Assembly (NCBI RefSeq): GCF_014204975.1
Contig: NZ_JACHMM010000001.1
Span: 5,432,037 to 5,456,036 of the forward strand
Source: Jiangella mangrovi
GTDB taxonomy: Bacteria; Actinomycetota; Actinomycetes; Jiangellales; Jiangellaceae
Direction of reading: 5' to 3'
Length of the DNA: 24,000 bases
Shown: positions 7,153 through 22,925 of the stretch, piece by piece
Numbering within the stretch: the first letter of the stretch is position 1
Layout: each line of letters starts with the position of its first letter
Position numbers and translations under genes: made by a program
Notes under the pieces: model-generated
What the model was told of the DNA's origin: nothing
What the model saw: the letters and a program-made list of their open reading frames with translations, nothing else
Databases searched by the model: none

Positions 7153-7193
7153 GGTCCTCGAACCTACCCCTCCGTGCGTGACACGATGGCCGG

Positions 7194-8393: not shown

Positions 8394-8519
8394 GCTCTTT
8401 CCCCTGGTGAGCGGACGTTTGGGACGTTCGTGGTCAGGGTGGTCCCGGGGGTGGGAATCAGGGAACGATCGTCGTCGAGTCGGAGCCGCCGGAGATCGAT
8501 ACGGTTCTAGCGTGGAGGC

Positions 8520-9326: not shown

Positions 9327-9373
9327 TGGGTGAGCGTTTGCTGGTGCCCTGGCGCCAGTAGACGCTCACCCAT
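9326..9373. repeat. Nested palindromic element, copy 1 (also a likely bidirectional terminator)
   Basis: The outer stem is a perfect 12 bp, 9326-9337 atgggtgagcgt with 9362-9373 acgctcacccat. There is a 3x3 internal loop. The inner 7-bp stem pairs 9341-9347 with 9352-9358 (one G-U) around a 4-nt loop. It starts on the last base of the DUF4097 stop codon. Confidence 0.6.
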
Positions 9374-9390
9374 GTCGCCATGCGCCCCGG

Positions 9391-9438
9391 ATGGTTGAGG
9401 GATCCGTGTCGCCTGGGCGACACTTTTCCCTCAACCAT
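9391..9438. repeat. Nested palindromic element, copy 2 (related to copy 1)
   Basis: The outer stem is a perfect 11 bp, 9391-9401 atggttgaggg with 9428-9438 ccctcaaccat. There is a 4x4 internal loop. The inner 7-bp stem pairs 9406-9412 with 9417-9423 around a 4-nt loop. It has the same ATGGnTGAG...CTCAnCCAT ends and the same architecture as copy 1. It lies 10 nt from the stop of the convergent gene at 9448. Confidence 0.6.
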
Positions 9439-9447
9439 TCCTGCGCG

Positions 9448-10410
9448 TCAGCTCGTTTCGATGACCTGACGCTCCCCGATGCGCACGGTCGCGGTGGTGG
9501 CGGGGTCCGGTGGGTCGAGCGTTCCTTCGGCCCCGGTGGACGCGGTCCACGTGGCGGCCCAGTTCGCGGTCGCGGTGACGGTGTAGGCGCTGCTGGTCTG
9601 CGTGTAGGCGTGGCCGCAGCTCGGTGATGGACGGACGCCGAGGCTCGGCTCGTAGGGTGTGCCGGGTTCTTCGCACGTGACGGTAGTGCCGTCGCCCATG
9701 TCCCACGCGACGTGGTCGACCTCGGCCGTGACGGTGACCGTGACGCCGCCGACCGTAGCTGATTCCTCTCGTGGTCCCCAGGTCGTCGGGCCGGCGTTCG
9801 TCACCCACATCCACACGGGCGCGCCCACGAGTCCGATGCTCTGTGGATCGGTCTCGAGCGGGCGCGGCGCGAGCCCCACCTCGAGCGGCTCGAAACTCAT
9901 GCCATCGAGGATCTGCTGAGCAACCTCCTCCGGATCGACCACGATCACCGGTGTTTCGCCCGGCGCCTCGGCGAGCCACATGTATCCGTGGTCGCCCCAG
10001 TGGATGCCTCCTGCTACACCCGCCAGCTTGCGCCACTCAAACATCCAGCCCTCTGCCGGATCACCGGTCCAGTAGCCGAGGTGGCTCAACGTCCCATCCG
10101 GCGGCCGGTGAAGCTCGTTCTCGGCGGGCGACAACCGCTTCAGATATCGATCGAGTGCATCGCTAAATTCGTAGCCCGCGATTGTGCAAGGTGCTGGAAC
10201 CACCTGCGGATCGTCCTGACTGCAATGAGTCAGATACGCATCGTCGTCGGTGTCCTCATCGGTGGGAGGTTCCTCGTAAACACAACCTGAACCATTGAAG
10301 TAGGTGCCCGGAGGGCATCCGTTCGCCCTCGGCGCGTCCGACGATTCGGAGGGCTCGGCTGGCGCGGCCAGCGCCATCCCCAACGCGAGAGCCCACGCTG
10401 CTGCTAGCAA
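9448..10410 (-). CDS. Secreted hypothetical protein with a C-terminal PKD-like (WDMGDG...CGHAY) domain
   Basis: The ORF runs 9448..10506. ATG 10506 would overlap the upstream gene by 103 nt, so I favour in-frame TTG 10410, which gives a 7-nt overlap; the start remains uncertain. The hydrophobic leader is LLAAAWALALGMALAAPA. The N-terminal region is Cys-rich. The C-terminus (VAWDMGDGTTVTCEEPGTPY...CGHAYTQTSSAYTVTATANW) resembles the PKD-domain signature. Confidence 0.6.
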   Translation of the reverse strand: MLAAAWALALGMALAAPAEPSESSDAPRANGCPPGTYFNGSGCVYEEPPTDEDTDDDAYLTHCSQDDPQVVPAPCTIAGYEFSDALDRYLKRLSPAENELHRPPDGTLSHLGYWTGDPAEGWMFEWRKLAGVAGGIHWGDHGYMWLAEAPGETPVIVVDPEEVAQQILDGMSFEPLEVGLAPRPLETDPQSIGLVGAPVWMWVTNAGPTTWGPREESATVGGVTVTVTAEVDHVAWDMGDGTTVTCEEPGTPYEPSLGVRPSPSCGHAYTQTSSAYTVTATANWAATWTASTGAEGTLDPPDPATTATVRIGERQVIETS

Positions 10411-11042
10411 GGCTCGTTCCGCGTCAACTCGATCGATTGCACCCTCCAGCCTGCACGTTGCGTGCCACCGGTCTCCGACTCGTGATGGAGCCAAGTCATC
10501 GCCCATTGCTGGTAGAGGTCTGGCTCGAATGTGAGGTCGGCCTCCCCGCCGTCATACGTCACGAATTTGAGCGCCGTCAAATCAAGGCACGCCGAAGAGG
10601 TCGCGCTGGCAGGGCTAGTGCCGTCCGCGTCCGATGAGAGATCGCCCACCGCATGAGTTCGAATCGCAGTCGCGGCCCGTTGCTCCATCGCGGAGTTCCG
10701 CCACGCGGCCACCCAATTGGTCAGCTCTAGATTCGCTTGCCCTTCGACAGGCCAGGTGCCCACCAAGTCCGCGTTCCAGGTGCTCTCCGCAGCGTCTCGG
10801 TAGTCGCTGGCGTTGATCTTGAAGGCGTCCCAGGAAGCGACCAGGTCTTCGAAGGTCGCCTTGATCTCGGCCTCGGCCTCTTCCTCCGGCGTGAGGGCCG
10901 GTGGCGCGGTGACCGCAGGCTCCGTCGTCGCCGGCGAAGGAGGCGGCTCGGGGTCCGAGTCCCCACCGCAGGCAGCCAGGGCAGCCACGGCGACCACACC
11001 GAGCACCGCCACCATCGCCGTCGCGCGACGCCTTGCGAACAT
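10404..11042 (-). CDS. Lipoprotein, function unknown
   Basis: Internal ATG 11042 is preceded by gggagg (reverse complement of 11049-11054). It gives MFARRRATAMVAVLGVVAVAALAACGGDSD, a classic lipoprotein signal with lipobox LAAC, followed by a Pro/Glu-rich linker. The longer listed ORF (to 11156) adds an implausible N-terminus. Confidence 0.7.
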   Translation of the reverse strand: MFARRRATAMVAVLGVVAVAALAACGGDSDPEPPPSPATTEPAVTAPPALTPEEEAEAEIKATFEDLVASWDAFKINASDYRDAAESTWNADLVGTWPVEGQANLELTNWVAAWRNSAMEQRAATAIRTHAVGDLSSDADGTSPASATSSACLDLTALKFVTYDGGEADLTFEPDLYQQWAMTWLHHESETGGTQRAGWRVQSIELTRNEPC

Positions 11043-11173
11043 CCCGAGAACCTCCCACACCCTGAACCGAGCCGATGATCTTACGCACTCACCGCAACCC
11101 CTCCTGTCATCTATAGGTGCTTTCCCGACCCCAAACGTGACAGCCACCGCTGGCAAGACCGTATGACGATGGA

Positions 11174-11179
11174 TAAGAT
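11174..11179 (+). promoter_or_regulatory. Possible -10 hexamer (TAAGAT) for a leaderless transcript of the toxin-antitoxin operon
   Basis: taagat at 11174-11179 ends 7 nt before the A of ATG 11186. No Shine-Dalgarno is visible between them (gctggt). The -35 is poor (tggcaa, 17-nt spacer). Confidence 0.3.
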
Positions 11180-11185
11180 GCTGGT

Positions 11186-11431
11186 ATGGCCAAGGAGAAG
11201 ATGACCGTCACCCTCGATCCGTCGACCCTGGCCGACATCGACGCGGACGCGCGGCAGGCGGGGTTGAACCGCTCGGAGTTCGTCGAGCGGGCGCTGCGGC
11301 GCGAGCACTACCGCCGCCTCCTCGCACAGGCAGGTCGCCCCCCGCACAGCCCAAGCAGCCAGAACGACCAGAGCCACCAGAGCGACCAGCAGCTGCGTGA
11401 CCTCCTCGCCTGGCAGCGCAACCCGTCGTGA
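11186..11431 (+). CDS. Ribbon-helix-helix (CopG/MetJ-type) antitoxin
   Basis: 81 aa. MTVTLDPSTLADIDADARQAGLNRSEFVERALRRE is a typical RHH beta-strand plus two helices. Its stop overlaps the next start (GTGA at 11428-11431). Confidence 0.7.
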   Translation: MAKEKMTVTLDPSTLADIDADARQAGLNRSEFVERALRREHYRRLLAQAGRPPHSPSSQNDQSHQSDQQLRDLLAWQRNPS

Positions 11432-11712
11432 ATCCGGGTGAGATCTGGCGGCTCGAGGACGGGTCGCTACGGATCGTGCTGAGCAACGCGATCTACAACA
11501 CCAGCCAACTGAACCAGGTGATCACCGCGGTCGTCGGCCCGCCGCCGGAGCAGTTCGAGCCGTTCGCCGTCGCCACCGATGCGGGCACGATCTTCGCCGA
11601 CCGCGTCGCCATGCATCCGCGGCACTGGCTCACCCAGCACGTTGCCACCATCAGCGTCCGCCAGCTCGCCGACACCCGCCGGCACCTCACCTTCCTCCTG
11701 CACGACGACTGA
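11428..11712 (+). CDS. MazF/PemK-like toxin (putative endoribonuclease) of a type II TA pair
   Basis: 94 aa with GTG 11428. The N-terminal PGEIWRL...LRIVLSN pattern resembles the GD(I/V)W...VV(S/T) opening of PemK/MazF-fold toxins. The gene is small and translationally coupled to an RHH gene. Fold assignment is tentative. Confidence 0.5.
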   Translation: MNPGEIWRLEDGSLRIVLSNAIYNTSQLNQVITAVVGPPPEQFEPFAVATDAGTIFADRVAMHPRHWLTQHVATISVRQLADTRRHLTFLLHDD

Positions 11713-11901
11713 CGACGCCTGACGGCAACCGGCGACTCATCGACGATGGCGCCAGCCTCCGGTTCGCGCCGATAAATCCGTTGCGCCCTTCGCGCAAGCC
11801 GAGCAGCATTGTCGTCATGCAGCGCATCGTGAATCCCACGCGGAAACCAGGCCGTCAACGCCTGGCGATGCGGCTGCCCCTGAGCAGCAGGGCGATGCGT
11901 A

Positions 11902-11998
11902 GGCGAGGGCTACTTCGGATTCGTATGTTCTGGGTTCGAATCCCAGCGGTCTGCGGACCGTAGCTCAATCCGGAAGAGCGACGAACTGTTCCTTCGCC
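11902..11998 (+). ncRNA. yrlA: YrlA-type bacterial Y RNA: circularly permuted tRNA-like module. True 5'/3' transcript ends are not determined.
   Basis: Read directly from the sequence:
- anticodon-like stem ttcgt 11920-11924 pairs with acgaa 11981-11985
- variable region atgtt 11925-11929
- T-arm ctggg 11930-11934 / ttcgaat 11935-11941 / cccag 11942-11946
- acceptor-like hairpin cggtc 11947-11951 / tgcg / gaccg 11956-11960
- ta 11961-11962, equivalent to U8-A9
- D-arm gctc 11963-11966 / aatccggaa / gagc 11976-11979
- g 11980, equivalent to position 26
- closing helix ggcgagg 11902-11908 with cc(t)tcgcc 11991-11998
It lies 160 nt upstream of the TROVE/Ro60 gene on the same strand. Confidence 0.75.
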
Positions 11999-12011
11999 GC
12001 CTCTTGTTCTC

Positions 12012-12080
12012 GCCCTGGTCCCATCTCGCCGATGCGAAGAGCCGGGTTACTTCTTTCGGGTAGAAGCGGCCGACCAGGCC
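12012..12080 (+). ncRNA. Stem-loop with a CCUGGUC/GACCAGG helix: possible Ro-binding stem or a second Y-RNA-like module
   Basis: cctggtc 12014-12020 pairs with gaccagg 12072-12078. Inside it, gccg 12041-12044 pairs with cggc 12067-12070, and cttct 12050-12054 pairs with agaag 12062-12066 around the loop ttcgggt. A 20-nt unpaired 5' segment is left over (12021-12040). The CUGGUCC string resembles the conserved 5' strand of metazoan Y RNA stems. The fold was made by hand and is not unique. Confidence 0.35.
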
Positions 12081-12157
12081 AGCGACTTGGCTCACTCGAG
12101 TTCTCGGCAGCGTCATGACCGACGATCAGCGACCCCGCCCGGAAGGAGGGCATCCCC

Positions 12158-13735
12158 ATGAGCAAGTTCGACCGCGCCAGCAAGGCCGCCGCCATGCTGA
12201 CGAGCCCGGTCCGGGCGCTCCGCAACGCCCGCAGCCGCACCGTCACCCACGAAGGCGCGCCCGCCCTCGTCCGCGACACGAAGGGTGAGCTGTTCCTCCT
12301 GGCCGTCACCAACCTGGCCGGCGAGGACACCTTCTATGAGGACGGCGACACCCGCGACGAGCGGTTCCGCACGCTCGTCCACGCGGCCACCGCCGAGGAC
12401 CCCGAGTGGGTCGCGCGCCTCGTTTCCTGGCTTCGGACCACCGCGAACCTGCGTTCGGCGCCGGTTGTCGCGGCGGTGGAGTACGTGCGCGCCGGCGGGC
12501 CGCACGGACGCCGGGTGGTCGACGGCGCGTTGCTGCGGGCGGACGAGCCGGCCGAGGTGCTCGCCTACTACACGTCGCGGTACGGACGCGCGTTGCCGCA
12601 GCCGATCAAGCGGGGCGTCGCCGACGCCGCGCGCCGGCTGTACACCGAGCGGGCGGCGCTGAAGTACGACGGCGTCTCGCGCGCCTGGCGTATGGCCGAC
12701 GTCCTCGAGCTGTGCCACGTGCGGCCACGCGACGACGCGCAGTCGGCGTTGTTCCGCTGGCTGCTCGACCGCCGGCACGGCCGCGCCGACACCGTCGTTC
12801 CGGCAGACCGGTTGCCCGTCGTCCACGCGAACACGCAGCTCAACGCCGTCCCCCAGAACGAGCGCAGGCAGCACCTCCGCACCACGGCGCTCGCCGACGC
12901 CGGACTCACCTGGGAGGCGCTCGCGGGCTGGCTCGGCGGGCCGATGGACCGGACGGCGTGGGAGGCGGTCATCCCGTCCATGGGCTACATGGCGCTGCTG
13001 CGCAACCTGCGCAACTTCGACGAGGCCGGGGTGAGCGACGCCGTCGCCGAGACGGTCGCCGCCAGGTTGGCCGACCCGGAGCAGGTGCGCCGCTCGCGGC
13101 AGTTCCCGTTCCGGTTCGTCGCCGCGTACCGCAACGCACCGTCGTTGCGGTGGGCGTACGCGCTGGACAAGGCGATCGGGACGGCGACGGCGAACGTGCC
13201 GGCCTTCGCGGGGCGCACGCTCGTGCTCGTCGACACGTCGGCGTCGATGACGCAGCGGGCGTTCTCGCAGCGGTCGTCGATGTCGCCGGTCGAGGCCGCC
13301 GCGGTGTTCGGGGTCGCGCTGGCCAAGCGGGGCAACGCCGTCGACCTGTACGGGTTCGCCGACGGCGTGTTCGCGCACTGGATCGCGCGCAGGACATCGC
13401 TGCTGACGGAGGCGGACCGGCTGGTCGGGCGGGTCGGCGAGGCCGGTCACGGCACGCGCATCGCCGAGGCGGTGCGCGCGACCTACCGCCGGCACGACCG
13501 CGTGGTGATCGTGACCGACATGCAGACCTTCCCGGACGGCGCCGGGCGCGGTGGCGACCCGGTCGCCGCCGTACCGGCAAAGGTCCCGGTCTACGGGTTC
13601 AACCTCGGCGGGTATCGCCCGACGGTGGTGGCCGCCGGCCGGGCGAACCGGCACGAGTTCGGCGGTCTCAACGACGCCACGTTCACCCTGCTCAGCCTGC
13701 TCGAGAACGGCCGCTCCGCCGGCTGGCCGTTCTAG
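12158..13735 (+). CDS. rsr: Ro60 ortholog: TROVE-domain plus von Willebrand A (vWA) domain protein (Rsr)
   Basis: 525 aa. ATG 12158 follows ggaaggaggg (12141-12150). The N-terminal roughly 350 aa is TROVE-like (LAVTNLAGEDTFYEDGDTRDERF..., WVARLVSWLRTTANLRSAPVVAAVEY, MGYMALLRNLRNFDEAGV). The C-terminal vWA has an intact MIDAS DxSxS (VDTSAS, codons 13232-13246). Confidence 0.9.
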   Translation: MSKFDRASKAAAMLTSPVRALRNARSRTVTHEGAPALVRDTKGELFLLAVTNLAGEDTFYEDGDTRDERFRTLVHAATAEDPEWVARLVSWLRTTANLRSAPVVAAVEYVRAGGPHGRRVVDGALLRADEPAEVLAYYTSRYGRALPQPIKRGVADAARRLYTERAALKYDGVSRAWRMADVLELCHVRPRDDAQSALFRWLLDRRHGRADTVVPADRLPVVHANTQLNAVPQNERRQHLRTTALADAGLTWEALAGWLGGPMDRTAWEAVIPSMGYMALLRNLRNFDEAGVSDAVAETVAARLADPEQVRRSRQFPFRFVAAYRNAPSLRWAYALDKAIGTATANVPAFAGRTLVLVDTSASMTQRAFSQRSSMSPVEAAAVFGVALAKRGNAVDLYGFADGVFAHWIARRTSLLTEADRLVGRVGEAGHGTRIAEAVRATYRRHDRVVIVTDMQTFPDGAGRGGDPVAAVPAKVPVYGFNLGGYRPTVVAAGRANRHEFGGLNDATFTLLSLLENGRSAGWPF

Positions 13736-13825: not shown

Positions 13826-13836
13826 CGGGAGGTCCG

Positions 13837-14373
13837 ATGCAGCAGGAAGTGGTCCTGGCACTGCTGGCCAAGGAGCCGTCGCACGGTTACCAGCTGCGCG
13901 CCCGGCTGCGGCAGGCGCTCGGCCCGGTCGGCGAGGCGATGAACGCGGGCCAGGTCTACGTCGTCCTGACCCGGCTCGAGAAGGCCGGCCTCGTCACCAC
14001 CGAGACCCCGTCGCCGTCGACCACCAAGAGAGAGCCCGCAGACCGCAAGACCTACGCCCTCACCCCGCAGGGCCAGCAGCGCGTCGCCGAGTGGCTGACC
14101 GAAGTGAGTTGGCCCAAGCCCGACCTCGCCGAGTTCCACCTCAAGCTGGTCGCCGCTGCGGCCGCGGGGCTCGCCGACCCGCTCGGCATCGTCGACACCC
14201 AGCGGCGCGAGCTGCTGCGCCGGCTGCGCGAGGCGCAGCGGGCGGCCATGGCCGAGCCCGACGGCTCCGACGCCGGCCTGCTCCTGGAGGGCATCGTCCT
14301 CCGGCTCCAGGCGGATCTGCGCTGGCTCGAGGCCTGCGAACGCAGCTGGACCACACGAAGGAGCACATCGTGA
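13837..14373 (+). CDS. PadR-family transcriptional regulator
   Basis: 178 aa, with ATG 13837 after gggagg. The winged-HTH signature is VVLALLAKEPSHGYQLRARL...GQVYVVLTRLEKAGLV. The upstream part of the listed ORF 12406..14373 is an out-of-frame shadow of rsr. Confidence 0.85.
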   Translation: MQQEVVLALLAKEPSHGYQLRARLRQALGPVGEAMNAGQVYVVLTRLEKAGLVTTETPSPSTTKREPADRKTYALTPQGQQRVAEWLTEVSWPKPDLAEFHLKLVAAAAAGLADPLGIVDTQRRELLRRLREAQRAAMAEPDGSDAGLLLEGIVLRLQADLRWLEACERSWTTRRSTS

Positions 14374-15110
14374 CCACCACCGGCCTCGCCCTCGCCACAC
14401 GGGGGCTGACGAAGACCTACGGCGACGGCGAAGGCCTCGTCCGCGCCGTCGACGCCGTCGACCTCGAGGTCGCGCGGGGCGAGACGGTCGCCGTCATGGG
14501 ACCCAGCGGCTGCGGCAAGTCGACCCTGCTGCACCTGGTCGGCGGGCTCGACCGGCCGAGCGGGGGCGAGATCGACCTGGCCGGCCGACGCATCGACCGG
14601 CTGAACGAGCGGGCGCTGGCCCGCCTCCGCCGCACCGACGTCGGCTTCGTCTTCCAGGCCTTCCACCTCATGGACGAGCTCACCGTCGTCGAGAACGTCG
14701 AGCTCCCCGCCCTGCTCGCCGGGCACTCCCCCCGTCGGGCCAGGGCGCGCGCCATCGCGCTGCTGGACCGCGTCGGCATCGGCGACAAGGCCGGCAGGCT
14801 GCCCGCCGCGCTCTCGGGTGGCCAGCGCCAGCGCGTCGCCGTCGCCCGCGCGCTCAGCAACGAGCCGGTCCTCGTCCTCGCCGACGAGCCCACCGGCAAC
14901 CTCGACAGCGCCGCCACTCTCGACGTGCTGCGGCTGTTCGAGGAGCTGCACGAGTCCGGCCAGACGCTGGTCATCGTCACGCACGACGAGCGCATCGCCG
15001 CGACGGCGGACCGGCTCATCACCATGCGCGACGGCGCCTTCGTCGACGAGACCCGCCTGACCGGCGGGACGACCGGGCGCCTCGGCGCGCTCGCCGGGTT
15101 CGAGGGCTGA
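14370..15110 (+). CDS. ABC transporter ATP-binding protein (MacB/LolD/FtsE-like)
   Basis: GTG 14370 overlaps the padR stop (GTGA) and is preceded by gaaggag. Walker A is GPSGCGKST, the signature is LSGGQRQRVAVARAL and Walker B is VLVLADEPTGNLD. Confidence 0.9.
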   Translation: MTTTGLALATRGLTKTYGDGEGLVRAVDAVDLEVARGETVAVMGPSGCGKSTLLHLVGGLDRPSGGEIDLAGRRIDRLNERALARLRRTDVGFVFQAFHLMDELTVVENVELPALLAGHSPRRARARAIALLDRVGIGDKAGRLPAALSGGQRQRVAVARALSNEPVLVLADEPTGNLDSAATLDVLRLFEELHESGQTLVIVTHDERIAATADRLITMRDGAFVDETRLTGGTTGRLGALAGFEG

Positions 15111-15115
15111 CGGCG

Positions 15116-17023
15116 ATGGGCCGGCTCCTGCTGGTGGCCCGGTTGGCCGCCCGTGATCTACGACGGCGTCCGGCTGAGGCCGCGCTGCTCCTGCTCGCCA
15201 TCGTCGCCGCGACGACGACGCTGACGCTCGGCCTGGTGATGCACGGCATCGCCGGCGACCCCTACCAGCGCACCCGCGAGGCGACGGCCGGGCCCGACAT
15301 CGTCGCCAGCATGATGCAGAACCCGTTCACCGGCGAGGGTGCCGACCCCGCCCAGCTCGAGGAGCTCACCGCCGCCGACGGTGTCACGGCCAGCAGCGGC
15401 CCGTTCCGGGTCGCGGCGACCAGCATCGAGGTCGACGGCCGCACGGCCGACGTGCAGGCCGTCGGGCGGCCGGTCGAGCCTGTCGCCGTCGACCAGCCGG
15501 CCGTCGTCGACGGCGAGTGGCTCGGCACGGACGGCGATGACGGCGTGGTCGTCGAGGCCGCCTTCGCGGAGGAACTCGGCATCGAGGCCGGCGACACCGT
15601 CACGCTGGGCGGCGAGTCCGTCGAGGTCGCAGGCATCGCCGTCACCGCCGCGATGACGCCGTACCCGTGGGCGAGCTGCCTCGTCCCGTGCGCTCCCGGC
15701 CCCTCCGGCGACGAGGGCGAGCAGGCCGCAGTCGAGCCCGGCGGCGATCCCGAGGCCGCGGGCGCGGGCGTCACCGGCCCGCCGGCGTGGGAGAACACCG
15801 TCACCGACCCCGGTCTGATCTGGGTTCCCGAGGCCGACGTCGCCGCCCTCGCCGCCGAGCCCGACGCCGTCTCCCACGTCGTGTACCTCCAACTGGCCGA
15901 CCCGGACAGCGCCCAGGCGTTCGCCGATGCCCGCATGCCCGACGGCCCGAGCATCGAGGACGTGCCCTGGCTGGAGCCGTGGCAGCACATCGTCGAGCAG
16001 GTCACGCACATCGAGCGCAACGCGCAGCGGGTCCTGCTCACCGGCGGCTGGCTGCTCGGCGTTCTGGCCGTGGCCGGCATTGCCGTCCTGGTCGGCGGGC
16101 GCATGGCGGACCAGACGCGGCGGGTCGGACTGCTGAAGGCGGTCGGCGGCACGCCCGGGCTGGTCGCCGCCGTCCTGCTCGCCGAGTACCTCCTCGTCGC
16201 CCTCGTCGCGGCCGCGACCGGGCTGGTCGCCGGGCGTCTGGTGGCGCCGGCGATCACCGACCGGACACTGGGCCTCATCGGCGGCGCGGGCACCCCATCG
16301 CTCACCGTCGGCACCATCGCGACGGTGACGGCGATCGCGCTGGGTGTCGCCGTGCTCGCGACCTTCATCCCCGCGATCCGCGCGGCCCGCACCAGCACCG
16401 TCGCCGCCCTGAACGAGTCCGCCCGGCCGCCCCGCCGGGTCGGCTGGCTGGTCGCGCTCTCGGCCCGGCTGCCGGTGGTGCTGCTCATCGCGCTGCGGGT
16501 GGCCGGACGGCGACCGCGGCGGTTCGTGCTCAGCATCGCGAGCATCACCGTCACCGTCAGCGGCATCGTCGCGGCGATGGGAGCGAACGCGCAGCTCAGG
16601 TCCAACCTGGCCCAGGACCCCGACGCCCGTATGGAGCGGCTGGGCGACGTGCTGCTGGTCATCACCATCACGCTGATCGCGATGGCCGCCGTCAACGCCA
16701 TCGTCGCGACCTGGGCGACCGTCCTCGACTCACGGCACGCATCCGCGGTCACCCGGGCGCTCGGTGCCACGCCGGCGCAGCTCAGCGCGGGCCTGTCGCT
16801 CGCGCAGGTGCTGCCGGCATTCGTGGGCGCCCTGCTGGGCGTCGGCGGCGGGCTGGCCCTCTACGCGGCGGTCGATCCCGACGAGGTCCCCATGCCGCCG
16901 ATCTGGTGGCTGGTCGCGCTGGTCCCCGGCCTCGTGATCGTGGTCGCGATACTGACGCTGGTTCCGGCGCGCCTCGCCGCCCGCCGTCCGGTCGCCCCGA
17001 TCCTGCAGGCGGAGACCGCCTGA
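15116..17023 (+). CDS. FtsX-family ABC transporter permease (MacB-type, two FtsX modules)
   Basis: 635 aa, starting 6 nt after the ATPase stop. It has the N-terminal ARDLRRRPAEAALLLLAIV TM segment typical of FtsX/MacB permeases, a large extracytoplasmic segment, and then clustered TM helices twice. Confidence 0.85.
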   Translation: MGRLLLVARLAARDLRRRPAEAALLLLAIVAATTTLTLGLVMHGIAGDPYQRTREATAGPDIVASMMQNPFTGEGADPAQLEELTAADGVTASSGPFRVAATSIEVDGRTADVQAVGRPVEPVAVDQPAVVDGEWLGTDGDDGVVVEAAFAEELGIEAGDTVTLGGESVEVAGIAVTAAMTPYPWASCLVPCAPGPSGDEGEQAAVEPGGDPEAAGAGVTGPPAWENTVTDPGLIWVPEADVAALAAEPDAVSHVVYLQLADPDSAQAFADARMPDGPSIEDVPWLEPWQHIVEQVTHIERNAQRVLLTGGWLLGVLAVAGIAVLVGGRMADQTRRVGLLKAVGGTPGLVAAVLLAEYLLVALVAAATGLVAGRLVAPAITDRTLGLIGGAGTPSLTVGTIATVTAIALGVAVLATFIPAIRAARTSTVAALNESARPPRRVGWLVALSARLPVVLLIALRVAGRRPRRFVLSIASITVTVSGIVAAMGANAQLRSNLAQDPDARMERLGDVLLVITITLIAMAAVNAIVATWATVLDSRHASAVTRALGATPAQLSAGLSLAQVLPAFVGALLGVGGGLALYAAVDPDEVPMPPIWWLVALVPGLVIVVAILTLVPARLAARRPVAPILQAETA

Positions 17024-17127: not shown

Positions 17128-17514
17128 TCAGCCGACGACGTCGCCGAGCACCGCCCGCGCGGCGTCCCGATTGTCGACGCACAGCACACCGACGAACTGG
17201 GCGTCCGAGACGCGCACCGGCAGGAACACCTCGACATTCACCCCGGCCTCGGCGAGCTTGCGGAACGTGGCCGCCCCCGCTCCGGGAGCGTTCTTCAGGC
17301 GGACGGTCAGCGCGTCCCGCTCCTGGGCATCAAACCCGGCGTCCTGCAGCGCGGTCCGTGCCGCCGACTCGTCATCGGCGATGAACGCGACCGTGCCGGT
17401 CTCGCCGTGCGCGAGTCCGCAGATCACGAGATTGATGCCGCGCGCCGCAATGACCTCGCACAACTCGGCGAGCCGCCCCGGCTGGTTCTCGAACTCGACG
17501 GTGAAGGCGCCCAT
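17128..17514 (-). CDS. ACT-domain protein (two tandem ACT-like repeats)
   Basis: I prefer ATG 17514 (MGAFTVEFENQPGRLAELCEVIAARGINL...), which has AGGAGG 8 nt upstream (reverse complement of 17524-17529). The listed ORF starts at GTG 17523. The beta-alpha-beta-beta-alpha-beta ACT pattern occurs twice. Confidence 0.75.
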   Translation of the reverse strand: MGAFTVEFENQPGRLAELCEVIAARGINLVICGLAHGETGTVAFIADDESAARTALQDAGFDAQERDALTVRLKNAPGAGAATFRKLAEAGVNVEVFLPVRVSDAQFVGVLCVDNRDAARAVLGDVVG

Positions 17515-17845
17515 GGCGCTCACCTCCTAGGAACAGGAGTCCTCGCTGCTCAACCTACTCCCGTAAGCCGCGCCTGACCCGACCGAGCCGCTGACCCATG
17601 CGACGACGGCTCCCATGTGGGGAGAGCGAGATCTACCTGCGGGGTGTCGGCGCACGCGCTGATGACGGCATGCCGGATGGCCCTTTGGTGGGGCGCACTC
17701 TGCGTCACTCGCGGCGAAATGACGCATCTGCAGGGGCGCGACGCGACGCGAAGCAGGTTAATCCGACCCGTCACCGATGATGCGGCCCTGCCCTGCCCCG
17801 GCGCTAGTGTCACCCCATGACACGAGGCGACGGGAGGCCGGCGAC

Positions 17846-18529
17846 GTGACCCCAGATCAATGGACCCCAGATCACGTTCGTCGGCAGGTCATGCGGCAGG
17901 CTCGATACGCACTGAACGTCTCAGTGCTCGACGAGAATCGGGTCCCACCCGAGGGCCCGTTCGATGTTGCTCTGACAAACGGACTCCTCGCCATCGTCGC
18001 GGCGATCGATCCCGCGGCCGTGATCGACAAGAGGGGCTTCACCCTTCCGGCTAGCGTCCTGCTGCCCAAGGCCGTCGCGCTCGGCCTCAGCGTCAACCAG
18101 GCGACGTTAGCGGAGGGGCTCGATCTGACCCAGCCGCTGCGACATGGCCGAGCCGATGACGAGTGGATTCAACTCGGATCGAAGCACCTCACAGCTCTGC
18201 GTGAACTTGACGAGTTCGACGGCCTCGAAGTGCTTCACCACGTTGGAGCCCACCGAACGGTGGACGACATGATGGTGACGCTGTTCTACGAGAAGGCACG
18301 GGCTTACGCGGAACGGGACGTTCGCCGAGTCAAGGATCTGCTCGATGTGATGGACCCGGAGGAGTGCAACGAGTGTTTCCGGCGCACCTTCGTTCCGCTC
18401 GGCTACGACAACAGCGGCGGCACGATGACAGTCGGGCTGTGCATCGCCTGCGGGCACCAGCGCGACGAAGACACTGCGTGGGGCATGTACATGGCAGAGC
18501 AGTGGGAGTTGAGATGGCAGCACGAGTGA
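17846..18529 (+). CDS. Hypothetical protein with a C-terminal CxxC...CxxC zinc ribbon
   Basis: GTG 17846 is in frame and follows gggagg (17832-17837) by 8 nt, giving 227 aa. I recognise no family. The C-terminus has CNEC, then 23 residues, then CIAC. G+C is lower than in the flanks. Confidence 0.65.
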   Translation: MTPDQWTPDHVRRQVMRQARYALNVSVLDENRVPPEGPFDVALTNGLLAIVAAIDPAAVIDKRGFTLPASVLLPKAVALGLSVNQATLAEGLDLTQPLRHGRADDEWIQLGSKHLTALRELDEFDGLEVLHHVGAHRTVDDMMVTLFYEKARAYAERDVRRVKDLLDVMDPEECNECFRRTFVPLGYDNSGGTMTVGLCIACGHQRDEDTAWGMYMAEQWELRWQHE

Positions 18530-18757
18530 CCTCGAGCTGCAGTGCAGACAACCTTCACCACGCCTGGGAAGAGTCCACCGCCAAGGCGGCGAAATGACAC
18601 GGGCGGACATGGTGGTTCAGCGAACGCGGACGCAAGCGGCGGGGTGAATTGAATCTGGCTTCACCCAAGAGGCAGTGCATTCGTGCCGTGAATCGGTTCG
18701 CCGGTGTTGTGTCGTGGGTGTCTGCCACCCTGGGTTCCCATTGAAAGGGGTCGACGC

Positions 18758-18970
18758 ATGCCTAGATACTGCGTGAACAGGAACGCCCAGCCGAATGGCG
18801 ACCACGAGGTCCACGACGTCTCGGCCAACAAATGGTGCCTGCCTACATCCGCCAACCGGGTGGACCTCGGGCACCACGAGACCTGCTCCCCTGCCGTGCA
18901 GGCCGCCAAGATCCACTTCAGCCAGGTGAACAGCTGTCGTTGGTGCGCCCCGGCCTGCCACACGAGCTAG
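18758..18970 (+). CDS. 70-aa Cys/His-rich small protein (MPRYCVNRNAQPNGDHEVH...CRWCAPACHTS), function unknown
   Basis: ATG 18758 follows gaaagggg (18743-18750) by 7 nt. It has six Cys (5, 27, 43, 60, 63, 67) and six His (16, 19, 39, 40, 53, 68). I believe I have seen the N-terminal YxVNxNAQxNGDHEVH and C-terminal CxxCxxxCHT pattern in small hypothetical proteins from unrelated bacteria, but I cannot name a family. Confidence 0.65.
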   Translation: MPRYCVNRNAQPNGDHEVHDVSANKWCLPTSANRVDLGHHETCSPAVQAAKIHFSQVNSCRWCAPACHTS

Positions 18971-19437
18971 AGCGTGTCTGATAAATGTCGGGTCCAGGAG
19001 ATGACGGCGTTGAGGACGACGGCGGCGCGGTAGACGATGGCGAGCTTGTCGAACCGGGTAGCCAGTCCTCGCCACTGTTTGAGCTGGTTGAAGGAGCGTT
19101 CGACGACGTTGCGGCCTCGGTAGTCGTCCGGGTCGAACGCCGGTGGGCGTCCGCCGCGTGAGCCGCGTCGTTTGCGGTGCCCGGCCTGGTCGGCGGGTTC
19201 GGGGATCACGGCCTTGATGCCGCGGGCGCGCAGGTGGGCGCGGATCGCGCGAGACGAGTACGCCTTGTCCCCGCGCAGCGCGTCGGGCCGGGTCCTGGGC
19301 CGCCCGGCCGGGCGCGCCACTTGCAGGTGCCCCAGCAGCGGCAGCAATGCCGGCGAGTCGCCGGCCTGGCCGGCGCTGAGCGCGATCACCAACGGCAGTC
19401 CGTGCCCGTCGACGAGCTGGTGGACCTTGGTCGACAT
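18967..19437 (-). CDS. IS5-family transposase, DDE catalytic part (orfB), +1 frame relative to orfA
   Basis: This frame is open upstream of the listed ATG and reads ...EPPDHGLGRSRGGMSTKVHQLVDGHGLPL..., the family-typical GRSRGG(L)TTK(V/I)H. It contains GDKAYSS and NVVERSFNQLKQWRGLATRFDK (DDE region). Its TAG stop is the complement of the junction CTAG. Confidence 0.85.
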   Translation of the reverse strand: MSTKVHQLVDGHGLPLVIALSAGQAGDSPALLPLLGHLQVARPAGRPRTRPDALRGDKAYSSRAIRAHLRARGIKAVIPEPADQAGHRKRRGSRGGRPPAFDPDDYRGRNVVERSFNQLKQWRGLATRFDKLAIVYRAAVVLNAVISWTRHLSDTL

Positions 19438-19909
19438 CCCGCCGCGGGAGCGGCCCAGACCGTGGTCAGGCGGCTCGCTGGTCGAGAACGTGTAACTCGA
19501 CCCAGCCCCCCGCGAGGCGTTTCATGTTCGTGGCGTGTTGATGAGCCCGAGCGATCGTGGAATCCACCGACACCGACCAGCCCAGCTGCCCAGCCTGGTC
19601 CGCTGCCGCGGTCAACCGGGCCAGCACCGCGTCCCAGGTGCCGTCGCCGGCCAGGCGCCGATGCCATGTCCACACCGTCTGCCACGGCCCAAACACGCCC
19701 GGCAGGTCCCGCCAGGCGATCCCACACCGATACCGGTACACGATCGCCTCCACCATCGCCCGCGCGTCGGAGAACGGGCGCCCCCGCCGACCCGTACGAG
19801 CCGGAAGAAGATCAGCGATCAACGCCCACTGCGCATCAGAGAGCAACTGAAACCGAGACACGACCCCGAGCATCCCCGACACGATCCCGGAACTTTGTCA
19901 GACACGCTC
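18970..19909 (-). mobile_element. IS5-family insertion sequence (IS427-like subgroup), about 0.94 kb, inserted in a CTAG
   Basis: The terminal inverted repeats are left gagcgtgtctgataaatgtc and right (reverse complement) gagcgtgtctgacaaagttc. The first 12 of 12 bases match, and 16 of 20 overall. CTAG is present at both junctions (18967-18970 and 19909-19912). The duplication is therefore TA or CTAG, and the ends are ambiguous by 1 nt. It carries two overlapping transposase ORFs. Confidence 0.9.
19466..19882 (-). CDS. IS5-family transposase, N-terminal part (orfA)
   Basis: 138 aa. FQLLSDAQWALIADLLP...RGRPFSDARAMVEAIVYRYRCGIAWRDLP...WQTVWTWHRRLAGDGTWD is the conserved N-terminal domain of IS5/IS427-type transposases. 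Confidence 0.85.
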   Translation of the reverse strand: MSGMLGVVSRFQLLSDAQWALIADLLPARTGRRGRPFSDARAMVEAIVYRYRCGIAWRDLPGVFGPWQTVWTWHRRLAGDGTWDAVLARLTAAADQAGQLGWSVSVDSTIARAHQHATNMKRLAGGWVELHVLDQRAA

Positions 19910-20111
19910 TAGCTGTCGCGGCTCTTGGTGGACAGAGTCGCCACGGGCTCGAGTCCGCATCCGAGCCAGCCGTGTACGCGGCGGTAAGACACAAGTCGGA
20001 TCAAGGGGGTCACCTGAACGTGCAACAGACCCCTGCCCGTCCGTGCCCGAACGCGCTATGGGCGAGCGCGCCGTCCTCGAAGGTCCCCGACTGAGTCGTG
20101 CGCCGCCTAGC

Positions 20112-21854
20112 ATGAGCGCACATAGCCAGGTCTTGGAGGTTGGGTTGAAAGCCGCAGGCGTGGACTACTCGAAGTTGGGTCCGCTGAGGGAAGCCCTCAC
20201 TGAAGCCGCCCGGACGGACGAGTCGAACGCAGAGCGTGCCGTTGAGCGGTTCGTTGAACTTCGACCCGGACACGCGGACACGCTGAAAGCCCGCCAGCAC
20301 CACCTGATCTCCGGGCGACGTGGAACCGGAAAGTCCACGCTCCTCCACGTTGTACGTGTTCATCTCCGTGAGTCGGGCGCGCAGGTCGCAGTGATCGACA
20401 TGGAGAAGTTCAAGAACCGACCGTTCCCGGATGTCCTGATCGAGATCCTCATCAAACTCCTGGACGAAATCCGACCTAGCGTGCACCTCGGCAGGTCTCT
20501 CATGGGTGACCTTCGACTTCGCCGCCAGTTCAAGGCGACTCGTCGTGAACTCAGCCAGATGCTCAACGACCCGCAGGCATGGAACAAGCAGATGACTCGC
20601 TCGAGACAGCGGAGCAAGTCGTCGAACGTCTCCGGCAAGGGCAGTTTCCGCGCAAGCCACCACGGGGCCGGCGCAGAGGCCGGTGGCGAGGCCGCCCGTA
20701 CAACACGTGCTGCGGATTCGATGACAGAAACCGCTGCTTTTGAAGAGGCGAAGATCGAGCGCCTACAACAGCTGGCAAGTCGACTGTCCGACGAGCTCAC
20801 AACCCTGGTGCGACAATCTGCTGGCGACCGGGCTGCGGTATTCATCGATGACTTCTACTACGTCAGGCTCGCGGACCAGCCCGAGGTTCTCGACTACCTC
20901 AAGACCGTCGCGAAGGGCACCGGGATCTGGCTCAAGGTCGGCGGCGTGGGCGAGCGCATGCGACCGTTCAGAGACGGGGACCCAGCGATCGGCATGCAGC
21001 CCAATCAAGACATCCACCCCCTACCGATCGATGTCACCCTTGACGACTTCGGAACAGCTCAGCGCTTCCTCGAGCGGATGCTCGACGGGGTGATCCAGCC
21101 ACTTGGCTTGACTACCGCTCAACTCTTCACCGAGACGGCCCGCAGCCGAATGGTGCTTGCTTGCGGCGGTGCAGTAGCTCGCGACTACATCACCCTCACT
21201 GGGAGCGCACTTGATGCCGCTGTCGAGCGGTTGAACAAGAAGCAAGCTCCATCACTGTCGACCTTGGTCAACATCCAGGCCGAGGACGTCAATTCCGCCG
21301 CAAGTCGGCGCATGAACAAGAAGGAAGACGAGGAACTGAACCTCGATGCGGGTGACGACGCTTCGCGGCTGCGGGAGCGGTGGCGCGACATCTGCGACTT
21401 CGTACGCGAACAAGGCGATACTGCCTTCGTCCTCATCCGCCAGAAGGATCTTGATGAAGGCTCATGGGGCAGCGAGATTCGCCAGCTTGAGAACTTGCGA
21501 CTGCTCCATCGGATCCGCGAAACCGTGCCGAACACACCGAACTGGCGCGGAGTCAAATGTGTCGTCTACATGGTCGATCTTGGCCAACTCACGGTCAAGC
21601 GGCTGCAAAAGGGTATCCCCGCGTTCTGGGAGCGGACGAGCGACTTCGACCGGTTGCGACGGGCCGAGTGGGTATACGGACCCGAGTGGAGAACCAAGCT
21701 CCAGGTCGCGCCCAAACCGACGCGGACGATCGCGGGCACGTCGGCGTCGGAGTCGGAGTTGGAGTCGGAGGAGCCGGCCATTCCCATGCTCTTCGACGAC
21801 CCAGCGGAGCTTGACGAGCTCGAAGGCGGTGCTGGTGGGGCGACTGGGACTTGA
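20112..21854 (+). CDS. P-loop NTPase with widely separated Walker A and B motifs, an AAA+-like lid, a probable winged helix and an acidic tail; family unknown
   Basis: The ORF is 20043..21854. I favour ATG 20112, where G+C drops, but the starts at 20043 and 20058 cannot be excluded, and no clear SD is present for any of them. Walker A is GRRGTGKST (20313-20339). Walker B is AAVFIDD (20832-20852). ACGGAVARDYITLTGSALDAAVE resembles an ORC/Cdc6-type lid. The C-terminus is SESELESEEPAIPMLFDDPAELDELEGG. Confidence 0.7.
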   Translation: MSAHSQVLEVGLKAAGVDYSKLGPLREALTEAARTDESNAERAVERFVELRPGHADTLKARQHHLISGRRGTGKSTLLHVVRVHLRESGAQVAVIDMEKFKNRPFPDVLIEILIKLLDEIRPSVHLGRSLMGDLRLRRQFKATRRELSQMLNDPQAWNKQMTRSRQRSKSSNVSGKGSFRASHHGAGAEAGGEAARTTRAADSMTETAAFEEAKIERLQQLASRLSDELTTLVRQSAGDRAAVFIDDFYYVRLADQPEVLDYLKTVAKGTGIWLKVGGVGERMRPFRDGDPAIGMQPNQDIHPLPIDVTLDDFGTAQRFLERMLDGVIQPLGLTTAQLFTETARSRMVLACGGAVARDYITLTGSALDAAVERLNKKQAPSLSTLVNIQAEDVNSAASRRMNKKEDEELNLDAGDDASRLRERWRDICDFVREQGDTAFVLIRQKDLDEGSWGSEIRQLENLRLLHRIRETVPNTPNWRGVKCVVYMVDLGQLTVKRLQKGIPAFWERTSDFDRLRRAEWVYGPEWRTKLQVAPKPTRTIAGTSASESELESEEPAIPMLFDDPAELDELEGGAGGATGT

Positions 21855-22076
21855 AGCCAGGCGTGGGGCACATGAGTCTTTGGGAAACGGACGGTGGAAG
21901 GGACGATCGCACACTCGCATCGCAGAGATCCGACCTGCCGAACTCCGCTCGCCGAGGCGCGACTCGACGGACGTCTCGGCTGCGGGATCGACGTAGCCCA
22001 TTATGGGCGGAAAGACGTCGTGGAGTGCCTACATTCCCCTTGAGCTGCGATGATCCCGAGCCGCAGCCCAGCTCGG

Positions 22077-22925
22077 TCAGCCGATGGAGCGGAGCTGCGG
22101 GAGCAGCTCGGCCGCCGCCGTCGCCTGCGCCTCGGCGGAGCCGGGGCGGGTGATGAGGATGATGTCGTCGGCGCCCACGGCGGCGAATGCCTCCACCCGC
22201 GAAAGCACGTCGGCCACATCGTCGCTCAACCGGAGCTGCATGGTGCGCCGGATGGCCGCGGGATCCCGCCCCACCGAAGCACAGTGAGCATCCAAGACAC
22301 CCGACAACTCCGCGAACTCCGAAGGCTCGACGCCGGTCGAGTTCCAGGCGTCGGCGTAGAGGGCGGTGATGCGGAGGGTTCGCTTGCGGCCGCTGCCGCC
22401 GATCCAGATGGGCGGGTAGGGCGACTGCACCGGCTTCGGCTCCGCAACCGCGTCGGTCACCTGATAGTGCGTACCCGCGAAAGTCGTCCGCGGCGACGTC
22501 CACAGCGACCGGATGATCTGGCAGGCCTCCTCGAGCCGGTCGAGCCGCTCCCCCGCCGTCCCGAACTGAAGGCCGAACATCGTGTGCTCGTACTCGGCCC
22601 ATGCTGCGCCGATGCCGAACTCGAGCCGGCCGGTGGACAGGTGATCAACCGTAGTGGCGATCTTGGCGAGCACGCCAGGGTGACGGTACGTGTTGCCCGT
22701 CACCATGCAGCCGATGCGCACCCGGGTGGTCGACTCGGCCATGGCGGCAAGCAGGGCCCACGCGTCGAAGATGTCACCGTCGGGGTCGCCGCCGATGGTG
22801 GCGAAGTGGTCCATGTTCCACACGTGGTCGAAGCCCGCCTCGTCGGCGATGCGCCAGACGGCGCGGTACTCGTCGATGGGGGCCTGCTGGCTCAGCTTCA
22901 GTCCGTAGCGCACGCCGTCAGTCAA
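22077..22925 (-). CDS. LLM-class (luciferase-like) F420-dependent oxidoreductase
   Basis: 282 aa. The start is TTG 22925, or alternatively GTG 22913 (MRYGLKLSQ...). FDHVWNMDHF, RVRIGCMVTGNTYRHPGVLAKIATTVDHLSTGRLEFGIGAAW is the typical LLM TIM-barrel signature. Confidence 0.8.
   Translation of the reverse strand: MTDGVRYGLKLSQQAPIDEYRAVWRIADEAGFDHVWNMDHFATIGGDPDGDIFDAWALLAAMAESTTRVRIGCMVTGNTYRHPGVLAKIATTVDHLSTGRLEFGIGAAWAEYEHTMFGLQFGTAGERLDRLEEACQIIRSLWTSPRTTFAGTHYQVTDAVAEPKPVQSPYPPIWIGGSGRKRTLRITALYADAWNSTGVEPSEFAELSGVLDAHCASVGRDPAAIRRTMQLRLSDDVADVLSRVEAFAAVGADDIILITRPGSAEAQATAAAELLPQLRSIG

Follow-up and report, generated by a model that had tools for sequence, protein, structure and literature searches.

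The window analyzed here is a stretch of 24,000 nucleotides from Jiangella mangrovi (NCBI RefSeq assembly GCF_014204975.1, contig NZ_JACHMM010000001.1, positions 5,432,037 to 5,456,036 of the forward strand). The subject of this work is the DNA between a gene for an ACT-domain protein (17128-17523, minus strand) and a gene for an LLM/luciferase-like oxidoreductase (22077-22925, minus strand). It holds an insertion sequence (IS) and three uncharacterized genes, which encode: a 227-amino-acid (aa) zinc-ribbon protein; a 70-aa Cys/His-rich mini-protein; and a 580-aa ATPase. The compositional, homology and context data make it very probable that this stretch is a small, horizontally acquired mosaic islet (17600-22040, with approximate borders), and not an operon or a multi-gene system. 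As it stands, the region is one more instance of a well-known kind of locus, an ordinary accessory islet that carries mobile genes as cargo, and its defense-island-like character is plausible by association only.

This outcome removes a false lead: there is no new three-gene defense system here. It also delimits three uncharacterized, horizontally mobile single-gene families, which occupy integrative elements, prophage moron slots and the neighborhoods of restriction genes.

Three single-gene modules in an islet of foreign composition

The islet is compositionally distinct from the DNA around it. The guanine-plus-cytosine (GC) fraction of positions 17530-22070 is 0.645, and 0.631 without the IS, as compared to 0.732 in the rest of the window; for 17.6-22.0 kb with the IS excluded, this corresponds to 63% GC inside versus 73% outside. 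Locally, G+C falls to 31/60 at 20401-20460, compared with 45/60 at 15121-15180. GC at third codon positions (GC3) is 0.76 in the 227-aa gene and 0.73 in the ATPase gene, and lies at 0.90-0.97 in the ABC, FtsX, ACT, LLM and FMO genes of the window. The compositional baseline for the islet was the apparently native operon directly upstream of the ACT gene (13831-17023; GC3 0.94-0.97), which encodes a PadR-family regulator, an ABC ATPase and an FtsX-type permease. Outside the islet, 1-kb intervals with a GC fraction below 0.66 occur only at 9.3-11.2 kb. The three genes, at 17846-18529, 18758-18970 and 20112-21854, all lie on the plus strand and have plausible ribosome-binding sites. An earlier, sequence-only reading of the window had reported this foreign composition, together with the three open reading frames (ORFs) and the IS; its two local G+C counts (31/60 and 45/60) were reproduced exactly and the coordinates held.

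The same reading had taken the three genes to form one cassette, and had itself set a lack of co-occurrence against that idea. Co-occurrence is absent from all three sides. Homologs of the ATPase were gathered from a protein database (108 clusters), GTDB genomes (6 loci), metagenomes (243 confirmed, 80 fetched) and IMG/VR (6 loci). Their loci, with up to 10 kb of flanking DNA, were searched by tblastn for the 227-aa and 70-aa proteins, and neither gave a single match, first at 89 loci and then, on repeating the search, at 94. The non-redundant ATPase loci number 88. Reciprocally, neither the ATPase nor the other partner was found in the five fetched contexts of the 227-aa gene (Nocardioides mesophilus; two related metagenome contigs, taken as one; Pimelobacter simplex; a viral-flagged copy of the Pimelobacter element; and Catellatospora citrea) or in the four fetched contexts of the mini-gene (Isoptericola, Nocardioides, a Streptococcus prophage and a Vibrio inovirus). 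With the window included, the six loci of the 227-aa gene have only the query gene in common, and the five loci of the mini-gene share nothing beyond the mini-gene.

A conserved neighbor of any kind was likewise not found for any of the three genes in the loci examined. Clustering of ORFs within 4 kb of the ATPase gene across loci gave tyrosine integrases (7 loci) and resolvases (6 loci) as the top clusters, with no recurrent partner. Among the 134 immediate ATPase neighbors at the 88 non-redundant loci, the Pfam family Phage_integrase occurs 5 times and all other families once or twice, and the PADLOC matches (RT_UG33, PDC-S05, PDC-S45, PDC-S23 and AbiEii) are all singletons. Gaps to these neighbors are mostly 100-500 bp. 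Because such gaps are found on both sides of most homologs, the ATPase genes appear to be monocistronic.

The DNA homology of the islet follows the individual genes. Matches to other genomes are limited to three blocks: 17719-18601, 18758-18970 and 19977-22009. The first block, module 1, takes in the 227-aa gene (plus strand) together with flanks of about 127 bp on its upstream side and about 72 bp on its downstream side. It is 88% identical to N. mesophilus DNA over 17719-18601 and 85% identical to the two related metagenome contigs (L093/L094) over 17790-18539, with different neighbors in every matched genome. The second block is the mini-gene itself. The third block, module 3, covers the ATPase gene (plus strand), 135 bp of DNA before it and 155 bp after it, and is 93% identical over exactly 19977-22009 to a metagenomic contig (L111) whose ATPase, at 96% aa identity, is the closest relative. 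In that contig the 3' end of an unrelated gene comes before the ATPase gene and an MNT/HepT pair after it; the mini-gene and an LLM gene are both absent. A Promicromonospora copy is 81% identical to module 3 over 20080-21861.

These observations bear directly on the cassette idea, under which an NTPase and two zinc-binding partners would make up a compact novel multi-gene defense cassette, merely split by the IS. The shared strand, the low GC of all three genes, their close spacing once the IS is removed and the failure to assign any of them to a known pathway are what such a cassette would look like. Its probability is nonetheless very low, since partners are missing from the 88 non-redundant ATPase contexts, the five contexts of the 227-aa gene and the four of the mini-gene, and the ATPase relative at 96% identity has other neighbors. 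In addition, DNA homology breaks between the genes, and the intergenic gaps (228 bp and about 200 bp) leave each gene with what appears to be its own upstream region. The cassette is thus unsupported, because the genes do not co-occur, their DNA homology runs gene by gene and the closest ATPase relative lies between other flanks. Of the novel defense-like island proposed earlier, the foreign DNA, the IS and the three uncharacterized genes stand, and the single three-gene system does not.

Vertical inheritance lies at the opposite extreme and is, if anything, even harder to credit. Under it, these would be ordinary Jiangella genes of atypical composition, and there would be no acquired islet. 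The region borders do lack an integrase, a tRNA gene and clear att repeats, as this explanation would have it. GC3, however, is 15-25 points below that of the neighboring genes, the DNA identities to Nocardioides (227-aa gene) and Promicromonospora (ATPase gene) occur between unrelated flanks, and the families are patchy across genera and present in prophages and integrative elements.

The mosaic islet probably took shape in separate steps. Three single-gene modules would have arrived independently, each with its own upstream region, and one IS5-family element would later have inserted in the CTAG at the stop codon of the mini-gene, with no damage to any ORF. The window itself does not have the features of a tRNA-integrated genomic island (an integrase, a flanking tRNA, att direct repeats): neither a tRNA gene nor an integrase was found within it, and no clear att repeats bound the islet region. 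Rfam searches at gathering and permissive thresholds found no RNA in the islet.

An ATPase with a predicted replication-initiator fold

The 580-aa protein (20112-21854, plus strand, ATG start) is the best candidate for follow-up: it combines a replication-initiator fold, a place as integrase-proximal cargo and a conserved tail peptide with the lack of an effector. It had been described from sequence as a P-loop NTPase that probably has a winged helix and that carries an acidic tail, a description that can now be sharpened to an ORC/Cdc6-type AAA+ protein. The AlphaFold2 (AF2) model, from a 23-sequence alignment, has a predicted local distance difference test score (pLDDT) of 77 and a predicted template modeling score (pTM) of 0.73. 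In a Foldseek search of the Protein Data Bank (PDB), the model gave full-length alignments to Cdc6/Orc1. The best match was archaeal Cdc6/Orc1 1fnn (E 3.4e-6), with 2qby, 2v1u and eukaryotic ORC/Cdc6 alongside it, and the Orc1/Cdc6 matches span E 3e-6 to 1e-4. Clamp-loader, RuvB and HslU chains come next. HslU carries an inserted domain between its Walker motifs, and its matches are probably due to the insert that the ATPase has between strand 2 and Walker B.

The features that define an AAA+ ATPase are present: a Walker A motif, GRRGTGKST (residues 68-76; 20313-20339), nearly invariant in the 23-sequence alignment; a Walker B motif, VFIDDFYY (residues 243-250; 20838-20861), with both D246 and D247 invariant; and, in the lid, a sensor-2 arginine. 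The arginine belongs to a sensor-2-like segment, ACGGAVARDY (residues 350-359; 21159-21188), with G352, G353, V355, R357 and D358 invariant and R357 at the sensor-2 position in the same alignment. We take this segment to resemble the GDAR sensor-2 motif of Cdc6/Orc1.

The features that set initiator-type proteins apart, a helical insert after strand 2 and a C-terminal winged helix, are seen on the predicted structure (pLDDT 77). Helices span residues 97-235 of the model, between strands 91-96 and 241-246. The insert itself comprises about 115 residues (approximately 121-235), after strand 2 and before Walker B, with a disordered low-complexity loop within it; in the predicted model its position is that of the initiator-specific insert of ORC/Cdc6. 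Beyond the lid lie the winged helix (residues ~438-490) and a conserved WVY-P-W segment, from which a linker of 30-50 non-conserved residues leads to a conserved acidic tail peptide. From the model and its motifs, we infer that the protein is a catalytically competent ORC/Cdc6-type AAA+ ATPase.

The comparison with archaeal Orc1/Cdc6 (1fnn, 2qby, 2v1u) and eukaryotic ORC/Cdc6 extends to the order of domains, in which a winged helix lies C-terminal to the AAA+ base and lid, as well as to the Walker A and B motifs, the insert at the initiator-specific motif position and the sensor-2 arginine within GG-x-x-AR-D. Unlike these proteins, the window ATPase is a bacterial, monocistronic, mobile-element cargo protein; its insert is expanded to ~115 residues of coiled helices with a disordered loop; and it has an extra C-terminal region made up of the linker and a conserved acidic LFDDPxELD tail. 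Sequence identity to Orc1/Cdc6 is only ~10-12%, with a TM-score of 0.3-0.47, and nothing points to a role for the ATPase at a chromosomal origin.

Sequence-level searches are less informative about the fold. The Pfam family ORC-CDC6-like (PF24389) gives the ATPase 20.7 bits, below its gathering cut-off of 27, in a match that reaches only from position 5 to position 54 of the 571 in the model, and homologs score 25-30 bits over only the first ~60 model positions. These matches cover the Walker A region only, and PF24389 was set aside as evidence of membership. Pfam, NCBIfam and PADLOC otherwise returned sub-threshold P-loop matches only (AAA_16, Sll1717 family, mad8, PtuA), and sequence and profile searches of the PDB with the ATPase gave nothing meaningful.

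The tail ends in a short linear motif, IPMLFDDPAELDEL (residues 557-570; 21780-21821, plus strand), located after the variable low-complexity linker. An LF[DEN] core is present in about two-thirds of 84 full-length ATPase homologs, in which the linker is not conserved, and the conserved C-terminal peptide is found at homolog loci L015-L024, L031, L039, L059 and L068. Its form differs by clade: LFDDPxELD in the close clade; a QTDIFSLL type in homologs at 35-38% identity; and an SLWD type in another clade. The LFDDPxELD-clade and QTDIFSLL-type tails resemble QL[SD]LF, the beta-clamp-binding motif. One hypothesis, suggested by the TLSLF and QTDIF variants, is that the tail may bind the beta clamp. 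Another is that it may be a docking peptide acting in cis or between subunits, which the LFDDPxELD form and the partial confidence of the monomer model (local pLDDT rises to ~77 at the motif) would fit equally well.

Several named defense systems contain proteins related to this ATPase. In bacterial immunity, ORC/Cdc6-clade ATPases are known from BREX and BREX-related systems (BrxC/PglY, BrxD, DUF499, DUF6079), some with a winged helix-turn-helix (PMC12839542). The window ATPase resembles them as a bacterial ORC/Cdc6-type AAA+ protein with no nuclease domain of its own; unlike it, the BREX ATPases act in multi-gene loci with PglZ, a methyltransferase and other proteins, and BrxC is ~1200 aa long. 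PglZ, PglX, BrxB and a methyltransferase are absent from the window and from the families of the 134 immediate homolog neighbors, and no BREX model is among the PADLOC matches. The best PADLOC match is mad8 of MADS (PDLC04140), found in 18 of 23 family members with E-values down to 1e-8, and it is confined to the P-loop core, positions 23-208 of the 314 in the model. The MADS operon has eight genes (bioRxiv 10.1101/2023.03.30.534895), and a methyltransferase and the other mad genes are absent from the window. Septu (PtuA/PtuB) was also considered and rejected: the PtuA match is partial (E 3.5e-4), the fold is AAA+ and not ABC, and the window has no HNH neighbor. Neither the 227-aa nor the 70-aa protein had a PADLOC match. 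None of the three proteins has the defining features of any named defense system, and PADLOC, Pfam, NCBIfam and PHROGs bear out the earlier statement to that effect.

The genomic contexts of close relatives suggest how the ATPase gene travels. In Mycobacterium crocinum (L002), the gene order is Prim-Pol/AAA_25, resolvase, tyrosine integrase (6543-7931), ATPase (8001-9656), tRNA-Gly(ccc) on the opposite strand (9777-9850, minus) and dcd, placing the tRNA gene 120 bp downstream of the ATPase gene. On two metagenomic contigs, L090 (563-2320) and L091 (7382-9154), a tRNA-Met gene has its 3' end 4 and 16 bp, respectively, downstream of the ATPase stop codon, and AAA_25, resolvase and integrase genes are close by. 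All three loci lie within or beside Prim-Pol/AAA_25-resolvase-integrase elements. The close ATPase clade is thus cargo at the integrase- and att-proximal end of tRNA-integrating elements. Locus L091 also contains two inverted tRNA-Met genes and a partial third copy.

Other homologs have other surroundings. The ATPase gene adjoins a gene for a TIR_2 protein, the MNT/HepT pair of L111 or DUF4145 genes on both sides, and further defense or toxin-antitoxin genes near homologs include RT_UG33, AbiEii and PDC-S05. At least 243 relatives were found in one metagenome scan, on contigs of widely differing composition. Plasmids and sequenced phages rarely carry the family: each of the two collections gave a single weak match.

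Two roles can be proposed for a gene with this distribution. The most likely is that of a stand-alone conflict protein, because tRNA-integrating elements carry close relatives as their terminal cargo gene. The element would carry the ATPase against the replication or establishment of competing phages, plasmids and elements. The protein would probably bind DNA via the enlarged helical insert after strand 2 and the winged helix, and would probably oligomerize in an ATP-dependent manner, with the C-terminal LFDDPxELD peptide as a docking or autoregulatory handle.

The main rival is that the ATPase provides a core maintenance function of an integrative element, as an ORC-like initiator, a partition protein or an integration accessory, and that the window contains the remnant of a decayed element. 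The fold of replication initiators and the location of close homologs directly after an integrase and beside a tRNA attachment site would suit such a function, and archaeal integrated elements often encode Orc1/Cdc6. Against this, the same tRNA-integrating elements already encode their own Prim-Pol/AAA_25 replication protein, and 129 of the 134 immediate neighbors are not integrases. The window, L111 and L001 have the ATPase gene without an element backbone, and a tRNA-fragment or att remnant was searched for downstream of the ATPase gene in the window and not found. Element maintenance is, on balance, unlikely.

A more specific proposal extends the stand-alone conflict role and is itself speculative, with a probability no better than that of element maintenance. 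The ATPase family would be a new single-protein immunity or inter-element exclusion factor that uses the insert and winged helix to recognize an invading replicon, assembles on it with the help of ATP and either blocks replication or hijacks it; the LF-acidic peptide would recruit part of the host replisome, for example the beta clamp. Separately from this, the 227-aa protein would be a metal-dependent defense enzyme with a new fold, working as a single gene. For the individual genes, a defense role is plausible through guilt by association, which applies to each separately.

Several points count against the reading of the region as a mosaic islet of conflict-related cargo. The islet borders and the empty ACT-LLM junction are drawn from composition and module homology only. 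The common plus-strand orientation of the three genes is unexplained, and would arise by chance in 1 of 4 cases. The functions of all three are argued gene by gene. For the ATPase, the immediate neighbors are mostly unrelated or housekeeping genes, the association with defense is anecdotal, and no effector domain is visible.

The zinc-ribbon protein and the mini-protein

The 227-aa protein (17846-18529, plus strand, GTG start) is predicted to consist of an all-alpha domain, a C-terminal zinc ribbon and a terminal helix (AF2 pLDDT 87, pTM 0.83). The CxxC...CxxC pattern and the Cys/His-rich nature of the mini-protein, both noted earlier, are borne out, the former as CNEC (residues 174-177) and CIAC (199-202). 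Foldseek found nothing significant for the model in the PDB (best E 1.5) or in BFVD (best E 0.14). The protein also has no match in Pfam, NCBIfam, PADLOC or PHROGs, no sequence match in the PDB, and none in the plasmid or phage collections. The model represents what is, as predicted, a previously undescribed all-alpha plus zinc-ribbon fold, and its confidence together with the lack of a detectable structural relative makes the protein a reasonable target for structural and functional work. A rubrerythrin-like identity, suggested by the helical bundle with Cys4 and by nigerythrin in the Foldseek list, was rejected (TM 0.15, E >1).

Conservation across the family points to more than a structural role. 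The invariant residues are E36, D40, T44, N45, Q96, H100, D104, E106, H114, D122, R179 and the cysteines C174/177/199/202, which suggests a catalytic or metal site and not a purely structural protein; the acidic and histidine residues among them look like a metal-dependent active site. The family is of modest size, with 103 clusters at 90% identity and, from a profile search, 249 representatives at 50%. Named members are actinobacterial, lengths are uniform, and Pfam searches of longer and distant relatives found no fusion to a known domain.

In the contexts examined, the 227-aa gene is always solitary, with an upstream spacer of ~300-550 bp. Its neighbors include: GmrSD and an SLFN/AlbA_2 protein (SLFN_AlbA_2) in one context; a DNA methylase, with McrBC further on, in a second; pP_pnuc_1, DUF4145, a UvrD-like helicase and a prophage integrase in a third; and Trypco1 with a trypsin-HEAT conflict system in a fourth. 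Conflict-associated genes thus lie within 8 kb of the gene in all four independent contexts outside the window, a small sample, and this conflict-gene neighborhood is suggestive. Because the gene is solitary and lies among restriction and other conflict genes, a single-gene defense or counter-defense function appears most likely by association.

Two sequence features accompany module 1. A palindrome read from the sequence, GTGTCA-CCCCA-TGACAC (17807-17823), precedes the GTG start by 22 bp. The N. mesophilus copy retains most of it, differing at one position in an arm, and the palindrome may serve as an operator or as a 5' hairpin. A 13-nt perfect direct repeat, GCGGCGAAATGAC, occurs on the plus strand at the left (17711-17723) and right (18586-18598) borders of module 1 and nowhere else in the window. 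The repeat copies are recognizable but degenerate in N. mesophilus, and the Pimelobacter copy of the gene is flanked by a different, 19-nt imperfect repeat. The 13-nt repeat could mark how module 1 moves, or could be due to chance.

The mini-protein (18758-18970, plus strand, ATG start) is 100% identical to J. mangrovi HD601_005096 and gives a full-length match to phrog_4298 (E 1.1e-15), in which residues 1-69 align with positions 1-69 of the 70-position model. It shares the NGDHEVH...C...CxxC...CH pattern of that family, here NGDHEVH, C43, C60-x2-C63 and C67-H68. No Pfam match was found among 19 members scanned, and sequence and profile searches of the PDB gave nothing meaningful; the family has no solved structure. 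Relatives occur in Actinobacteria, Bosea and Luteolibacter, and at least 96 IMG/VR contigs encode one. In Streptococcus Javan prophages, the mini-gene is oppositely oriented within the early/lysogeny region; it is also found in a Vibrio inovirus and, in one Klebsiella-type prophage, between the lysis genes and the terminase gene, where an annotated relative of the prophage has other cargo. The protein is best described as a zinc-binding phage/prophage moron-type protein. The window copy lies in an actinobacterial chromosome, outside any recognizable prophage.

The surroundings of the mini-gene recur in one group of viruses. In 15 of 38 distinct viral contexts (L115, at 6229-6468, and 14 others from IMG/VR), a conserved ORF of ~79 aa comes after the mini-gene on the same strand. 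These contexts appear to be enterobacterial prophages of ~50% GC. This ORF is unrelated to the one that follows the Nocardioides copy.

The phage-borne distribution of the mini-protein, overwhelmingly at moron or early positions, raises a further alternative: that the mini-protein, the 227-aa protein or both are counter-defense or regulatory genes of mobile elements (anti-restriction proteins or repressors) and not host defense. The proximity of the 227-aa gene to restriction genes is also typical of anti-defense and regulatory genes, and the conserved palindrome upstream of it would suit them as well. No similarity to a known anti-defense family was found, however, and the many invariant polar residues of the 227-aa protein look more like those of an enzyme than of a binder or repressor. 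This alternative is doubtful, if somewhat less so than element maintenance is for the ATPase.

The insertion sequence and other features of the window

The IS is 940 bp long (18970-19909, minus strand) and is an ordinary IS5-family element with an IS427-like layout. It contains an IS5-type DDE transposase, terminal inverted repeats and a target-site duplication. The transposase is encoded by two overlapping-frame ORFs, orfA (19466-19882, minus strand; NF033580, 105.9 bits) and orfB (18967-19437, minus strand; NF033580, 118.8 bits, cut-off 110), which supply a DUF4096 N-terminal part and a DDE (DDE_Tnp_1) C-terminal part, with nothing unusual as compared to other IS427-type elements. The terminal inverted repeats are GAGCGTGTCTGA and TCAGACACGCTC, within an inverted repeat of 28 nt (86%) at 18965-18992 and 19887-19914. 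As is usual for this type, the target is CTAG with duplication of TA, here at 18968-69 and 19910-11, and the CTAG overlaps the stop codon of the mini-gene. That stop codon is TAG in both the occupied and the empty state. The empty site proposed for the locus after removal of the IS, CACACGAGCTAGCTGTCGCGG, is correct.

Two further regions of the window lie upstream of the islet. An element resembling a YrlA-type Y RNA is located at 11900-12006 on the plus strand (Rfam RF02553, full model, 50.3 bits, E 2.8e-10, below the gathering score of 69), and ~150 bp downstream of it is a TROVE/Ro60-like (Rsr) gene with a vWA domain (12158-13735, plus strand). Together, 11900-13735 looks like a bacterial Ro-Y RNA module in Jiangella. 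The other region, 9300-11750, is a second patch of lowered GC (0.62-0.67). It contains two minus-strand ORFs, 9448-10506 and 10404-11156, with a GC3 of ~0.75 and no Pfam match. In the same patch, an RHH/CopG-type gene (11186-11431) shares 4 bp with an ORF of 94 aa (11428-11712) that has no match in Pfam, and these two genes are a probable toxin-antitoxin pair.

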